A stretch of DNA of 51,766 nucleotides from Candidatus Aenigmatarchaeota archaeon (lineage in GTDB: Archaea; Aenigmatarchaeota; Aenigmatarchaeia; Aenigmatarchaeales; Aenigmatarchaeaceae), in the NCBI GenBank assembly GCA_046760145.1, contig JBHIDO010000003.1, positions 1 through 51,766 of the forward strand. Direction: 5' to 3'. A program made the translations under genes and the position numbers. The notes below the pieces were generated by a model, which was not told the DNA's origin, made no database searches, and saw only the letters and a list, made by a program, of their open reading frames with translations. Positions 2,939-44,975 of this stretch are shown here, piece after piece; the stretch's first letter is position 1; each line of letters opens with the position of its first letter.

Positions 2939-3100
2939 TTATAATGGAAATGCATAGAATAAAATTAATTCAAAAATTATTAAAGAAACACAAATTAGTG
3001 CAACATGTTCTGGTTTTAGTTTGATTAAGGATTTTTCTTCCTCATAATATCTTACCAAACCTGCCATTCCACTTGGAGCTTGAATTCTTTTCTCTGCCAT
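2939..3100 (-). CDS. secG: Preprotein translocase subunit Sec61beta
   Basis: Manual translation MAEKRIQAPSGMAGLVRYYEEEKSLIKLKPEHVALICVSLIIFELILFYAFPL; AGLVRYY...IKLKPEHV plus one TM helix. Confidence 0.9.
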   Translation of the reverse strand: MAEKRIQAPSGMAGLVRYYEEEKSLIKLKPEHVALICVSLIIFELILFYAFPL

Positions 3101-3117
3101 AATTATCACGATTTAGC

Positions 3118-3393
3118 GGTGTGCTGGGTTAGCCCGTCTTCTGTGAGCAGATCATTGCCCTTGGCAAATCATCTACCTGCATAATGGCATCTGTCTTTGC
3201 AACCTACCCGCTACTCCTTCATCATTGTAGCCTACTTGGTCTTGCACCTTGCTAGCTTGTTCAATTGAAATCATATTTTTAGGGATTTAATTGAACTGCC
3301 TTACCTTCTCAGGTAAGTCCTTTCGGACAGCAAATTTGATGGTGGACGGAGCTTCCTCACCGCAATGCAGCGACAGCCATCTCCCAGCTCACC
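3118..3393 (-). ncRNA. rnpB: RNase P RNA
   Basis: P1 GGUGAGCUGGG/CCCAGCACACC; CR-I GAGGAAGCUCCGUC pairs with CR-V ACAGAAGACGGGCUA (P4); GGUGCAAGACCAAGUAGGC segment. Confidence 0.88.
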
Positions 3394-3429
3394 TTTTTAG
3401 AATATATTTTTAAAGTTTAAAAAGATTAG

Positions 3430-3699
3430 TTATAATTTAATTTCCTCTCTTTCCAATACTTCATAACCTAATTCATTATCTGCTGGTATTCTTAATTCTT
3501 TATATGCTGTATTACATTTTCTACCACCATATGCTTTAGAAACCTTTAATAATGTTTCTATATCAGGAAAGCAAAAGGTTTTTGTACCTGTTAATATTCC
3601 AGAACCATTATTAGTTTCAACCCTACGAGTTTCAAAATAAGAAGATTTTAAAGCATAAGCTTCTCCTTCTGTAATTCTTTCAGTTAATATTGCGACCAT
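3430..3699 (-). CDS. Hypothetical protein (89 aa)
   Basis: ORF with GTGAT RBS and TTTAAA box upstream; no recognised motif. Confidence 0.6.
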   Translation of the reverse strand: MVAILTERITEGEAYALKSSYFETRRVETNNGSGILTGTKTFCFPDIETLLKVSKAYGGRKCNTAYKELRIPADNELGYEVLEREEIKL

Positions 3700-3766
3700 A
3701 CAATCACTTCTAAAAGAAATAACATTTAAGATATTTAAAAGTTCCTTTTTTACTCTAAGAAAAGAG

Positions 3767-3798
3767 TGAACCAGCAGAGGTATTTGAGAGGTCTAAAC
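3767..3798 (-). other. 3' strand of pre-23S processing stem (BHB)
   Basis: GUUUAGACCUC-UCAA-AUA-CCUCUGCUGGUUCA is complementary to 8698-8730, with a 4-bp UUGA/UCAA helix and two 3-nt bulges. Confidence 0.85.
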
Positions 3799-4007
3799 AA
3801 AAAGGCGTTGGGAACAGCGAGCTGAATATGTCGCCGAAGCTTCATACTTACACTCCTGTCCCATTAAACGGATCGTCTATCCGTGCCAGTTACCTATTTT
3901 TCCCGGCAGCTTCGAGCTTAGATGCCTTCAGCTCTTATCTGCTATGGCGTAGCTGCCCGGCAGTGCATTAACAACCGGTCAACCAGTGGCCACGAGTGGG
4001 CGTTCCT

Positions 4008-40899: not shown

Positions 40900-41927
40900 T
40901 TAGGTTTTAACTATCCATTCTTTACCAAATATAGGAATTTCTTTTCCACACTTTTCACATTTTAATGATAATTTTGAAACACTTATTCCAAATCTTTCAA
41001 TAACCCTTGTATTACATTCAGGGCAATAAGTATTTTCATATTTATGACCAGGGACATTTCCTAAGTAAACATAATTCATTCCATTTTCTTTAGCTATTTT
41101 AACTGCTTGCTCTAAAGTTTGAACAGGAGTTGGTTTTACATTTAGTAATTTATAATGAGGATAAAATCTTGAGAAATGTAATGGAGTATCTGGACCTAAA
41201 TTGTTTTTTATCCATTCTACCAGATTTTTAATTTGTTCTTTCTTATCATTATATCCAGGTATTATCAAATTTGTAATTTCTATCCATACCTTTTGTTTCT
41301 TATATTCTTTTAATGCTTGTTTTATTGGGTCTTCATTAGGAATCGAACATAATTTTTGATAAAATTTAATATCACCTTTCATATCAACATTTATTGCATC
41401 CAAATATTTTGCAATTTTTCTAATTGGTTCAATATTTGTGAAACCATTAGAAACCCAAACATTATACAATCCTTGCTTTTTTGCTAATTTCATTATATCA
41501 TAAGCATATTCATAAAAAATTGTTGGTTCAGTATATGTATAAGCAATCCCAGGAGAATTATGCTTATTATTAAATTCTATAATTTCTTTTGGAGACATTT
41601 TTTCACCGAAAATTTCTTTTGGATGAGAAATTTCCCAATTCTGACAAAAAATACATTTTAAATTACAACCAACTGTACATATTGACAAACAATTTGTTCT
41701 TGGTGCAAAATGAAATAATGGTTTTTTCGAGCTTCTATAGCTTATTGCTATAAAAGTTTCTCAATAGGATCTACTGCCATAGATGCGATTTTCCCATAAA
41801 CTAACGAATACAATTTTCCATTTCTGTTTTCCCTTACTCCGCATACCCCTCTATTATCTGAAGCAATTTTACAATTCCTAGGACATAAATTGCACTCAAT
41901 ACCTCCATTCAATTTCTTAAAAAACAT
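40900..41927 (-). CDS. amrS: AmmeMemoRadiSam system radical SAM enzyme (PflA-like), two exons: 41927-41758 and 41725-40900 (331 aa spliced)
   Basis: Exon 1 CNLCPRNC...GVCGVR...YGK...VDPIE; exon 2 KPLFHF...GCNLKCIFCQN, AYTYTEP, PLHFSRFYP, TYCPEC. Confidence 0.9.
41726..41757 (-). other. 32-nt BHB intron in mRNA
   Basis: UGAG-AA^A-CUUUUAUAGC-AAUAA-GCUAUAGAAG-CUCG-AA^A; contains an in-frame TAG; excision restores frame and DPIEKKP. Confidence 0.88.
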
Positions 41928-41941
41928 CGCCTCTTTGATTT

Positions 41942-43513
41942 TTAAACACCTCCTTTTTTTCTATATCTTACCAATATGTTATTCAAAAGGAAAAATCCTG
42001 TTGTTATTGGAAAAATAAAACTATTATTAATTCTTATTTCTTTTTTATAAATAATCTTACACCAATTAAGTTTAATCTTTAATAATTTATCTATTTTGTT
42101 ATCTTTAAGAACAGTGTTAAGTTTAATTAAAGTTTCGTAAGAAAAGTTTCCACTCTTCTCCATTGAATATATATTACTTAAACCAGTATCAGAAGCAAGT
42201 TGTTTAGCAGGAATATTCAATTTTTTTCTTAAATTTCGCAAATAACTTCCTACATTTGGAATTATTCTTCTTTCTGTAAAATTCATTTTTTTCAACTTTA
42301 ACATCTCTTCATTTTTCTTACGATGTTTCAAACATTTTATATTTTTAATTAACCTACCAATGTTACCTCTAGATACAGATAAAATCCATGTGTTATCTTT
42401 TTTAGATTTTCTAATTGATGAAGATACACCTATTCTTAGTAAAGCTGATGAAAGACCTAAAATAAACTTGAAACTGTTTGATGTAATAGTTATACTATAA
42501 TTTGTAGCACTTACATTACCTTCACCGTCAATTACACCTCGTAGTGCATTTAACATTATCTTATTTTTACTTAACAAAGCTAATTGTGGAAATTCAACAA
42601 TTTTTGATTTGTTTCCTTTAGGTACACCCAAAAATCTATGATAAAAATATGCTAAGAAACCAGGTAAATTTATTCTTGTTCCATTTTGTTGATATCCATG
42701 AACATTGAAGTACATATCCTTTAATACATTAGTATAATTTTTGTCTGAAAATTCAAGTATAGCTTGCTTTTCATTTTTTACTATGTGCCCCTCTGCGACC
42801 ATAACAGCATTAAGATAAGCTAAATCATCATTATATTCAAAGGGAATTTTCGCAAATTTTTTAGCGCTTTTTTCATTTTTCAATCCTTTAGAATAATTAA
42901 ATATTTTATAGATTTTATTTTCGTCAAGATATTTCTTTATAAATTTTTTGAGATAACCATAGCTTATACTATCTTTAGAAGAAGGATTTCTTCTGACCAA
43001 CCAATATTCAACTTCTAGCTCTTTTGCAATATCTTTTAACAAAATATCTCTTTTTTTAAGTATTTTATTTAATTCTCTCAAATACCATTTTTTAACACCA
43101 ACGACGTATAAAAAGTCATCAAAATACCACGGATCAAATGTTATATTCTTTGAGGTGGTTTTGAATATCCTGGGTGTGGCTACAAAATCATTAACTTCCA
43201 AATCACTTACTTTTTTACATAATATGTCTGCATTTATTGTTGTTACAAGCTCAAAATTTTCCGGGACAATTATAAAGAAACCATTCTTTAATTTCAAAAA
43301 TACAAATTTTTTACACTTTTTATTTTTTATAGAAGAAACCGTAGTGCAATTAATTTTATTAGTAAAAGATATTAATTTATCACCTTTCTTTAATTCAAGT
43401 ATATCTTTTAAATAACCATTTGATAGTTGAACTAATTGAATACTATCACTTATTCTTTTTATATTCTCAATATCAATTAACCGACCATTTTTATTTTGTA
43501 TTATAGACCCCAT
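41942..43513 (-). CDS. Free-standing intein-derived protein: degenerate Hint + double LAGLIDADG + HTH
   Basis: LAYLNAVMVAEG and LRGVIDGEG motifs; Hint-like ends (LKKGD; LEVNDFVATPR; FLLNNILV) lacking Cys1, TxxH and terminal HN; no exteins. Confidence 0.8.
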   Translation of the reverse strand: MGSIIQNKNGRLIDIENIKRISDSIQLVQLSNGYLKDILELKKGDKLISFTNKINCTTVSSIKNKKCKKFVFLKLKNGFFIIVPENFELVTTINADILCKKVSDLEVNDFVATPRIFKTTSKNITFDPWYFDDFLYVVGVKKWYLRELNKILKKRDILLKDIAKELEVEYWLVRRNPSSKDSISYGYLKKFIKKYLDENKIYKIFNYSKGLKNEKSAKKFAKIPFEYNDDLAYLNAVMVAEGHIVKNEKQAILEFSDKNYTNVLKDMYFNVHGYQQNGTRINLPGFLAYFYHRFLGVPKGNKSKIVEFPQLALLSKNKIMLNALRGVIDGEGNVSATNYSITITSNSFKFILGLSSALLRIGVSSSIRKSKKDNTWILSVSRGNIGRLIKNIKCLKHRKKNEEMLKLKKMNFTERRIIPNVGSYLRNLRKKLNIPAKQLASDTGLSNIYSMEKSGNFSYETLIKLNTVLKDNKIDKLLKIKLNWCKIIYKKEIRINNSFIFPITTGFFLLNNILVRYRKKGGV

Positions 43514-43582
43514 AGAGAATAATATTATATTTTCATTTATAAATATATTTATTATTAAGTAAAATAATAAGATTTAAATAAT

Positions 43583-43653
43583 GCCCCAGTAGCTTAGTGG
43601 TAAAGCAATCACCTCGTAAGTGATTGACACCGGTTCGATTCCGGTCTGGGGCT
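43583..43653 (+). tRNA. tRNA-Thr(CGU)
   Basis: GCCCCAG/CUGGGGC acceptor; AUCAC-CUCGUAA-GUGAU anticodon arm. Confidence 0.92.
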
Positions 43654-43696
43654 CAAATTTAATAAGTTTAAATTTGTATCATTCATAGGTGAAATA

Positions 43697-43993
43697 ATGG
43701 AATGGATAACATTTATTAAAAAAGAAAATGTGAGAAAAGCAGAAGAAATTCTGAAAAAAGATGACATAGCCAGCAGACAAAGTATTTTAATAAAAGATGC
43801 AAGAGCTTTGGGAATAGAAGAAGATGGTAGTTTCTTTAAAATTGATGGGAATGAAGAAGGGGTTGAAAGATGTAAAGAATTAATAAAAGAATTTGTTGAA
43901 GAAATTTCTGAAGAAAAATTAAATAAAGCTAAGGAAGAAATTAAAAAAGAGGAAGAAACTGCTGCTGAAGGAATGGGTGGAATCTTCGGCTAA
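43697..43993 (+). CDS. Conserved hypothetical protein
   Basis: AGGTGA RBS; C-terminal AAEGMGGIFG. Confidence 0.7.
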   Translation: MEWITFIKKENVRKAEEILKKDDIASRQSILIKDARALGIEEDGSFFKIDGNEEGVERCKELIKEFVEEISEEKLNKAKEEIKKEEETAAEGMGGIFG

Positions 43994-43997
43994 TTAG

Positions 43998-44070
43998 TGC
44001 GCTGACGGGGATTTGAACCCCGGTTTTCAGCTTGGGAAGCTGATGTCCTACCAGGCTAGACTACCAGCGC
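43998..44070 (-). tRNA. tRNA-Gly(CCC)
   Basis: GCGCUGG/UCAGCGC acceptor; UCAGC-UUCCCAA-GCUGA anticodon arm. Confidence 0.92.
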
Positions 44071-44800
44071 ATTTATTAGGATTGCTTGGTTTTATCTGTT
44101 TTATAAGACTTTTAGCATGTTTACCATGAAGACTTAACGTATGTAAATTTGCTCTTCCATTTTTCTTTAATTCAAAATATTTTGGTTGTAGATTACAATT
44201 GTTTACAATTATCTTATTAACTTGTCTTATTAAATTATCAGAAACTGCAGCAAATGAAATTCTTCTTTTGGGTGCATAAAAATTCCCATCTGTATCAATT
44301 AAACCTCTTAGAAAGCCTATGTTAAATTCCTTGTTATTAAGATCTAATTTTTTAAGTTTAATTGTATAAGCTTTTTTACCTTCCCAATCTAGATATTTCT
44401 TTAAAAGTAGGTAAATTTTTTTCGAATCGTAAGAAAATACTACACAAGATATCCTATTTTCATATTTTACATGAAAAATTTGTGGTTTTTTATTAAACCA
44501 GATATGTAATTTTCTTTTCAGGTATTCTACATAATCACTTTCGTAATAACCTGTGTATATTCTAGTTGTATAATGGTAATTCTTATCTTTTCTAAAGTAA
44601 CCATCTCCGGAAAATATTCCTAAAAATTCTCCAAGCTCGTTTTCATTTTTAAAGTTTAATTTAATTTCTTTGAACCTTTTTCCTTTGATTTTTTTATAAT
44701 GATGATAAATTGTTGATTTTGCAAAACCTGTTTGTTTACTTATGTTATTAATAGATACTCCTCGTTGTATAAGTTCGATAACTTCTTTCGTTACTTTCAT
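44048..44800 (-). CDS. Free-standing HTH + double-motif LAGLIDADG endonuclease
   Basis: EFLGIFSGDG and GFLRGLIDTDG; N-terminal HTH; last codons read into tRNA-Gly. Confidence 0.88.
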   Translation of the reverse strand: MKVTKEVIELIQRGVSINNISKQTGFAKSTIYHHYKKIKGKRFKEIKLNFKNENELGEFLGIFSGDGYFRKDKNYHYTTRIYTGYYESDYVEYLKRKLHIWFNKKPQIFHVKYENRISCVVFSYDSKKIYLLLKKYLDWEGKKAYTIKLKKLDLNNKEFNIGFLRGLIDTDGNFYAPKRRISFAAVSDNLIRQVNKIIVNNCNLQPKYFELKKNGRANLHTLSLHGKHAKSLIKQIKPSNPNKCAGSLAW

Positions 44801-44897: not shown

Positions 44898-44975
44898 GGG
44901 CCTGTGGTCTAATCTGGTTATGACATCCGCTTGACGTGCGGGAGGTTCCCGGTTCAAATCCGGGCAGGCCCACCA
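44898..44975 (+). tRNA. tRNA-Val(GAC)
   Basis: GGGCCUG/CAGGCCC acceptor; UCCGC-UUGACGU-GCGGG arm; encoded CCA. Confidence 0.92.

Follow-up and report, generated by a model that had tools for sequence, protein, structure and literature searches.

What is an intein-like nuclease gene doing directly in front of a conserved enzyme gene that is itself split by a short insert? The question is raised by a 51,766-nt stretch of DNA from Candidatus Aenigmatarchaeota archaeon (assembly GCA_046760145.1, contig JBHIDO010000003.1), referred to below as the window, in which positions 40,900 to 43,513 hold a 523-aa open reading frame (ORF) followed on the same strand by amrS, the gene for an AmmeMemoRadiSam radical SAM enzyme (AmrS), with 32 extra nucleotides inside its coding sequence. 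An earlier note on this DNA had proposed that the ORF encodes a splicing-dead, intein-derived homing endonuclease and that the nuclease and the insert, a mini-intron, spread together as a collaborative homing unit. Based on the comparisons below, the reading we favour, and to which we would give an even chance of being right, is that the ORF product is a free-standing homing endonuclease of intein origin, of the kind represented by WHO in budding yeasts, that would target amrS, with the intron as one of several possible routes to immunity. Nuclease activity, the target site, homing and the splicing of the insert are here all deduced from sequence.

The 523-aa gene comprises the following parts:

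41942..43513, minus strand: intein gene of 523 aa, without exteins and predicted to be splicing-dead (Hint fold, two LAGLIDADG motifs and a helix-turn-helix, HTH), from the ORF, Pfam, alignment, AlphaFold2 and Foldseek
43109..43513, minus strand: Hint N-terminal lobe, about aa 1-135; Cys1 column absent, P84-x-x-F87; beta strands at residues 4-114 in the model
42785..42823, minus strand: LAGLIDADG motif 1, aa 231-243, with acidic E241
42608-42610, minus strand: block-D lysine K302, upstream of LAGLIDADG motif 2
42515..42553, minus strand: LAGLIDADG motif 2, aa 321-333, with acidic E331
42077..42250, minus strand: Cro/C1-type HTH, aa 422-479, between the nuclease domain and the Hint C-terminal lobe; helices at 422-479 in the model
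41963..42070, minus strand: Hint C-terminal lobe, aa 482-517; block F Asp replaced by P502, block G His-Asn by Arg-Tyr
41947..41953, minus strand: GGAGGTG in the final codons of the ORF, 19 nt ahead of the amrS ATG (41927)

Profile searches of the 523-aa protein returned LAGLIDADG_3 (1.8e-11) and LAGLIDADG_WhiA (1.3e-5, 25.7 bits) in Pfam, together with Intein_splicing at 3.8e-5 and 24 bits, under that family's cut-off of 35.8; in NCBIfam the only models matched were those of intein-bearing proteins (RpoA'', aIF2, V-ATPase A and DnaB). A HMMER scan of 1.84 billion representative proteins (E <= 0.001) gave 158 matches, five of them at the level of the family: the protein itself, P0010 (46% identity), P0011 (42%), the fragment P0012 and P0013 (28%). 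The remaining matches, at E 5e-15 or weaker, are LAGLIDADG proteins and inteins within large proteins, and several of these inteins, hosted by SRP54/FtsY, aIF2, TopoVI-B and aRF1, cover nearly the entire query. Among the same 1.84 billion representatives no protein longer than 530 aa matched with an E value better than 5e-15.

The likeness to inteins extends from end to end. In a MAFFT alignment of nine family members with 11 of the intein-match proteins, the 523-aa protein is collinear with true archaeal inteins throughout, its termini coinciding with the intein boundaries. An AlphaFold2 model built on a 27-sequence alignment has a mean pLDDT of 93.8 and a pTM of 0.92, and its best Foldseek matches in the PDB are inteins: 7qss TliVMA (1.3e-19), 2cw7 PI-TkoII (4.9e-18) and 1dq3 PI-PfuI (1.1e-14). 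I-DmoI and WhiA match the nuclease part only, from rank 17 downward. The Hint-like ends that the earlier note had seen in this ORF, and for which it had proposed profile and structure checks, are thus borne out by the model and by the whole-protein matches to inteins, with the Pfam intein profile remaining below threshold.

The residues required for splicing have all been replaced. Family proteins begin three residues past the Cys1 column, so that the nucleophile is absent (the serine at residue 3 lies outside that column); the TxxH of block B has become PxxF, with P84 and F87 invariant across the family; the Asp of block F is replaced, again invariantly, and is P502 in the window; and in place of the His-Asn of block G stand R or K followed by C, S, Y or G. 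Relatives terminate exactly there, and the window protein continues for a six-residue tail of its own. Nor is the protein embedded in frame in a host protein: the frame stays open for only 20 codons further upstream (543 aa instead of 523) and a tRNA-Thr(CGT) gene lies 70 nt upstream on the opposite strand, which leaves no space for an N-extein. The absence of exteins and of splicing residues, as claimed previously, therefore holds, and on this alignment the 523-aa protein is a whole intein turned into a separate gene, predicted to be incapable of splicing.

The nuclease centre, on the other hand, appears intact. The block-D lysine is kept in 12/12 family members, 28-55% identical to the window protein, and each of their LAGLIDADG motifs has E or D as its acidic residue; the helices of both motifs carry their acids as in a two-motif LAGLIDADG homing endonuclease. 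In the window the positions are E241 (in VAEG), E331 (in DGEG) and K302, which upholds the description of two motifs with retained acids. The same note had offered a domesticated WhiA-like regulator as an alternative. WhiA has no Hint domain and lacks the catalytic acids; its structures (3hyi, 8dy9) resemble the ORF protein in having two LAGLIDADG-type domains followed by an HTH, but the ORF protein possesses Hint lobes and conserved acids and its HTH is internal. WhiA ranks 18th (and again 35th) in the Foldseek results. Since acids and lysine are kept in all 12 members, a non-catalytic WhiA-like protein is disfavoured. The HTH match is weak in the window protein (Pfam HTH_19 at 0.016, HTH_3 at 0.032); it is clearer in the family member P0013 (HTH_3 at 8.9e-8), and SRP54 inteins carry HTH_3 at the corresponding position.

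The family is small and scattered. A word-indexed search recovered nine orthologues of 518-525 aa and 46-55% identity. Within the phylum, orthologues occur in 2/371 genomes (G000 and G304), which belong to the same class and to different families. The 60 nearest relatives gave no match better than E 5e-15, and no relative of the ORF was found in viral contigs. A tblastn search upstream of amrS for remnants of the ORF, with nine family queries at E <= 10 over the 1.5-kb flanks of 29 ORF-less loci, was likewise negative, the exception being a different, 208-aa LAGLIDADG gene in one of them (L043). Genomic context was available for at least four ORF loci: the window, L019, L020 and L021.

The second half of the region is amrS itself, which is preceded in relatives by the same tRNA gene:

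41758..41927, minus strand: amrS exon 1, aa 1-56, ending ...AVDPIEK
41726..41757, minus strand: 32-nt insert in amrS, candidate mini-intron of bulge-helix-bulge (BHB) type, HBh' form
40900..41725, minus strand: amrS exon 2 (AmmeMemoRadiSam radical SAM enzyme, TIGR04337)
43583..43654, plus strand: tRNA-Thr(CGT), whose place ahead of amrS is conserved in relatives; in the window the inserted ORF separates the two

The large exon matches TIGR04337 in NCBIfam (1.4e-74) and Radical_SAM in Pfam (1.2e-21); read without excision, the window's amrS appears as two ORFs, of 59 aa (41748-41927) and 262 aa (40900-41688). The coupling of the nuclease ORF to amrS is not peculiar to the window: the ORF stands directly upstream of amrS and on the same strand in 4/4 loci, with a 14-nt gap in the window, a 1-nt overlap in L019, a 13-nt overlap in L020 and, in L021, a 14-nt overlap by the listed TTG start or a spacing of about 1 nt with a later ATG. 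The gene on the far side of the ORF differs in each of the four. Pairwise identity among the four loci is 44-53% for the ORF and 49-59% for amrS. The GGAGGTG motif, which was previously read as the ribosome-binding site of amrS, is indeed contained in the ORF's final codons; its spacing of 19 nt to the ATG is long, which makes that role doubtful, and a GAGG is present 2 nt before the ATG.

Comparison with the window's own family suggests how the present arrangement arose. The gene order there is p98, tRNA-Thr, amrS, p146, p293. In 12 loci both p98 and the amrS start could be found; the p98-amrS gap is 158-406 nt and free of any ORF of at least 70 aa in eight of them, as against 1770 nt, filled by the ORF, in the window. 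The window's p146 is 60-69% identical to those of its family, whereas its amrS reaches only 51-55%, below every amrS pair within the family (n = 45, 56-90%). Against L019 the relation is reversed, with 45% for p146 and 59% for amrS. In a maximum-likelihood tree of 33 AmrS rows (29 of 38 matches outside the window's own, plus the four ORF-linked alleles) the window is sister to L019 (support 97/83), and a split supported at 100/97 separates it from 11/12 rows of its family. Judged by these identities and this tree, the window holds an amrS allele of foreign origin with native genes on either side. Taken with the vacant site in relatives, this replacement of the allele suggests that the ORF arrived recently and horizontally.

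If the nuclease were to cut amrS, the resident alleles would be expected to show where. The motif DPIEKKP is the most conserved seven-residue stretch of AmrS (mean column conservation 0.98); it is exact in 25/29 ORF-less alleles and, by our own count, in about 103/118 of the nearest database homologues. None of the four ORF-linked alleles has it uninterrupted: it reads DPLTKKP in L019, EPLEKKP in L020 and DSISKKP in L021, and in the window DPIEKKP is split by the insert. By Fisher's test, which ignores the relatedness of the alleles, 0/4 against 25/29 gives p = 0.0017, and the three intronless alleles by themselves p = 0.007. The nearest database neighbours of L019, L020 and L021 mostly have the consensus, which marks their variants as derived. 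In the DNA the changes lie immediately 5' of where the insert sits, within CCN-ATH-GAR, at the first and second positions of codons. More broadly, 61 AmrS columns are at least 90% conserved in ORF-less alleles, 13 of them numbered 73-101, and 11 of the 16 ORF-linked deviations fall in those 13 columns (the missing C-terminus of L019 being left out). The proposal that the nuclease targets the DPIEKKP site thus gains ground from comparison of the alleles: the site is altered in 4/4 ORF-linked alleles as compared to 4/29 ORF-less ones.

The insert in the window divides this motif. Excising the 32 nt yields a 331-aa AmrS in which DPIEKKPLFHF is restored and there is no internal stop, and the joined protein is 79% identical over its full length to its nearest database protein, P0160. 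The cut points may be shifted by up to 2 nt toward exon 1 or by 1 nt toward exon 2 with the same product, owing to the flanking runs of A. The RNA is predicted to form a 10-bp hairpin that a 3-nt AAA bulge separates from a short helix (-18 kcal/mol, z -3.3), a fold matched by 1/200 shuffles. The 5' site is canonical, with a 4-bp helix, the AAA bulge and a 10-bp inner helix. By the canonical BHB rule each cut falls after the second bulge nucleotide, and the 4-bp helix UGAG/CUCG then places the cuts 32 nt apart, which is exactly the length that restores both the frame and the motif. The genome also encodes a splicing endonuclease, EndA, of 172 aa. Contigs from four sequencing runs carry the complete interval 41300-43700 with one or two differences and no indel; presence in all four means that the insert is no one-off assembly error, and the runs belong to one hydrothermal vent metagenome study that is possibly the source of this DNA. 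The amrS gene is uninterrupted at the insertion point in all 29 ORF-less relatives examined and in L019, L020 and L021. We regard the 32-nt insert as a candidate BHB-type intron, which the splicing endonuclease would remove. A repeated element was also considered as the nature of the insert and ruled out, as the 25-nt hairpin core is single in the genome with up to three mismatches allowed.

Several observations concern the same position in other DNA. Another contig from runs X1-X3 (length 2688 nt in X2, at a depth of about 12-15) aligns with the conserved stretches that flank the insert (window 41647-41758) and has 78 letters where the window has 110, that is, 32 fewer; it probably represents a co-resident relative with an intronless amrS. 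Two close AmrS homologues are called short: P0173 (280 aa) begins exactly at the motif (MDNILKKP...), and P0207 (276 aa) is without the motif region. They may represent additional amrS genes with an interruption at this site or close to it.

We propose the following scenario for the locus. The ORF sits immediately upstream of amrS within what would be one transcription unit, and its product would cut amrS alleles that are without the ORF near the DPIEKKP codons, the probable target being the DNA for this motif, which lies some 185 nt away. With an allele that carries the ORF as donor, repair would then bring in both the ORF and the amrS sequence next to it. Resident alleles would evade self-cutting through substitutions in DPIEKKP, and in the window the means of escape would be the 32-nt BHB-type intron, which interrupts the site and would be excised from the mRNA by the archaeal splicing endonuclease. 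The distance previously given between insert and ORF, about 185 nt, is correct when counted from the intron to the ORF stop. What this scenario does not retain is the obligate partnership of nuclease and intron, since three of the four ORF loci adjoin an intronless amrS and the co-occurrence check on which the idea of joint spread depended has failed. Protection of the host allele by the mini-intron may survive as one escape route among several; as a general device it does not, with the intron in one locus of four.

How do other explanations of the same locus compare? The strict version, in which nuclease and ORF-less mini-intron spread only as a pair, with the intron conferring immunity, we consider very improbable. 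It accounts well for an insert that splits an otherwise consensus DPIEKKP close to the ORF, and for an intron seen solely in an ORF-bearing locus; the difference of 1/4 as against 0/29 ORF-less loci is, however, non-significant, and with the ORF family about 50% diverged and the intron confined to one lineage, any association must be young and optional. A domesticated intein that serves the host, for instance as a DNA-binding regulator or a site-specific nuclease acting on the amrS operon in the manner of HO or WhiA, which are relatives of homing endonucleases in the service of their hosts, has several points for it: the gene pair overlaps or lies closely spaced in 4/4 loci, all members seen are full length and intact with identities (42-55%) approximating the divergence of amrS (49-59%), an HTH module is present, and the former splicing positions P84, F87 and P502 hold invariant replacements. 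We nevertheless think it rather unlikely. amrS occurs without the ORF in 36/60 relatives and the ORF itself is so rare in the phylum that amrS evidently does not need it; the catalytic acids and lysine are kept throughout, unlike in WhiA; the empty site and replaced allele point to recent horizontal arrival; and the HTH sits at the same position in true SRP54 inteins, so it is no new regulatory addition. Quite improbable, to our minds, is an inert relic, a dead mobile element hitchhiking with an amrS cassette in ordinary horizontal transfer. amrS is taxonomically discordant even without the ORF, as such a view would have it, but intact ORFs and a conserved active site over lineages about 50% diverged argue for selection, and hitchhiking would not be expected to give ORF-linked alleles their surplus of changes at amrS positions that are invariant elsewhere.

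A separate doubt attaches to the insert. It might not be spliced at all, being instead a disabling insertion, conceivably a scar of repair where the nuclease would cut, that has turned amrS into a pseudogene, or else a segment that ribosomes bypass from AAA to AAA; this is possible, although we lean against it. amrS was not found in 24/60 relatives and may be dispensable, the 3' splice site is without an outer helix, the EndA is of alpha4 size, and the hairpin, which contains an in-frame UAG, has an AAA codon on either side. Against this, both exons are intact and conserved, giving a joined product with up to 79% identity to the nearest homologue; the helix-bulge geometry predicts precisely the length that restores frame and consensus motif; and a fold this stable is rare among shuffles. 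Ribosomal bypassing is not known in archaea.

Returning to the reading of a WHO-like endonuclease directed at amrS, a number of points weigh against it. Cleavage, homing and splicing are predictions. The context rests on four loci, with P0002-P0005, P0007-P0009, P0011 and P0013 outside the count, and the tests on the motif treat the alleles as independent. A gene that stays intact over the long term and is translationally coupled to amrS is compatible with a host function as well; all members seen are intact, with no decayed copies among them, though a homing cycle predicts some. The four exceptions among the 29 ORF-less alleles show that DPIEKKP can vary in them too, and a second cluster of ORF-linked substitutions, at GKLYSLVY, lies about 15 codons (about 45 bp) upstream, beyond the reach of a 22-bp site. 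The amrS tree departs from taxonomy elsewhere as well: one genome of the window's family (G005) falls on the window's side, two genomes hold two amrS copies and the four ORF-linked rows do not form one clade. The placement of G005 and the double copies indicate that exchange or paralogy of amrS also happens without the ORF. The ORF tree is a five-way polytomy and so carries no information on co-divergence with amrS, and no leftover 5' fragments of amrS were found upstream of the ORF, where spacers of 69, 188 and 56 nt leave no space for them. As for the insert, its 3' site has the AAA following the helix with the outer helix essentially missing, as in the relaxed HBh' kind, and at 172 aa the EndA has the size of the alpha4 type. 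Enzymes of this type are classically strict for canonical BHB motifs. In DPANN lineages, an alpha4-type EndA with an extra loop reportedly accompanies more disrupted tRNA genes.

Other homing-type genes and irregularities lie near amrS in the window and its relatives. In the genome G014, from the window's family, the 208-aa gene of L043 (2526-3152, plus strand) has two LAGLIDADG motifs and stands, on the opposite strand, at the place between amrS and tRNA-Thr that the ORF takes in the window; the amrS of this genome has an intact DPIEKKP yet is unusually diverged (against L039, p146 78% and amrS 64% identical; tree branch 0.5 as compared to 0.13 for its sister). Homing endonuclease genes may have settled repeatedly in the region upstream of amrS. 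In the window, another free-standing LAGLIDADG gene (44048-44800, minus strand; 250 aa, N-terminal HTH, LAGLIDADG_3 at 2e-9, acidic residues in both motifs) lies between tRNA-Gly(CCC) (43997-44070, minus strand) and tRNA-Val(GAC) (44898-44975, plus strand), its last 23 nt overlapping the tRNA-Gly gene, and is weakly similar to the 208-aa gene of L043. Elsewhere in the window's genome (G000:C6:32395-32553, L002) there is a weak LAGLIDADG-type match within a 244-aa open frame (40% over residues 286-345, E 7.6e-8). The amrS of L019, an Aenigmatarchaeota metagenome-assembled genome, runs from 3072 to 3932 and ends ...HLGNV after 286 aa; it is without the C-terminal Cys-rich zinc-ribbon part found in other alleles, and an opposite-strand gene follows 14 nt on. 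Finally, the tRNA-Thr(CGT) beside amrS is 88-89 nt long in the relatives L029 and L045 and 72-75 nt elsewhere, which suggests a tRNA intron in those lineages.

In the literature searched, extein-less or free-standing inteins were described only for yeast WHO/HO, and among the matches listed, judged by title, there was no archaeal case of a free-standing intein-derived LAGLIDADG gene. We speculate, tentatively and in the knowledge that the whole is rather unlikely to hold in every part, that the locus represents an archaeal gene-drive-like system, in which an escaped intein nuclease acts at the most conserved codons of a neighbouring housekeeping-type gene and one lineage has recruited a BHB intron as immunity; it would then be the first prokaryotic counterpart of WHO/HO and the first link between an intein nuclease and an archaeal mRNA intron. 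If this were true, inteins could leave their host proteins and become free-standing homing genes in prokaryotes too, and the locus would offer a natural system for studying how a target gene escapes, whether by substitution in a near-invariant motif or by an intron. In addition, BHB introns in protein-coding genes would extend to a DPANN-type archaeon, and there would be a family of compact LAGLIDADG enzymes whose candidate target is open to direct assay.

Among known systems, the closest in protein architecture are the archaeal intein endonucleases (7qss, 2cw7 and 1dq3), which share with the ORF protein the whole-protein fold (Foldseek E 1e-19 to 1e-14, TM about 0.5-0.7), the order Hint-N, nuclease, Hint-C and the catalytic residues; the ORF protein differs in having no host protein and in its replaced splicing residues. 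The genetic arrangement calls to mind the free-standing endonucleases of phages. One of these, F-CphI, reportedly has a psbA-intron target. Trans or collaborative homing is described for T4 mobE with I-TevIII (PMC2790892) and for F-CphI (PMC6083498), and the likeness lies in a free-standing nuclease gene beside the gene thought to be cut and, in the window, an ORF-less intron at the suspected site. The phage systems differ in employing HNH and Endo VII-like nucleases and self-splicing group I introns, as compared to the intein-derived LAGLIDADG protein and the putative protein-spliced BHB intron considered here, the latter accompanying the nuclease in one locus of four. For the intron, the precedent is provided by archaeal BHB introns in protein genes, namely cbf5 of Crenarchaeota (PMC2738675). 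These likewise are short mRNA introns with a helix-bulge motif whose removal restores a conserved frame; here the gene is amrS, the organism is a DPANN-type archaeon, the canonical helix-bulge-helix is found at the 5' site only, and the intron is known from DNA.

The nearest parallel to the locus as a whole is with WHO and HO of budding yeasts (Coughlan et al. 2020, PMC7282813). These are extein-less intein-like nucleases; WHO, without motif G, is encoded beside FBA1, accompanied by leftover FBA1 fragments, and cleaves FBA1 allele-specifically, resistant alleles differing in 3/7 core bases. By comparison, the system described here is archaeal, has no C-terminal zinc finger (Pfam finds none) and instead carries an internal Cro-type HTH; its ORF adjoins the 5' end of the proposed target gene, where WHO lies downstream; tandem clusters, pseudogenes and leftover gene fragments were not seen; and an RNA intron may confer immunity in one lineage. 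No close sequence relation between them was detected, the ORF having its nearest relatives in archaeal SRP54 and aIF2 inteins. The features in common are an extein-less intein-like LAGLIDADG gene that has lost its C-terminal splicing motif, a position adjoining one conserved housekeeping gene, resident alleles that differ in the core of the putative site, and sequence of the adjacent gene that is replaced together with the element.

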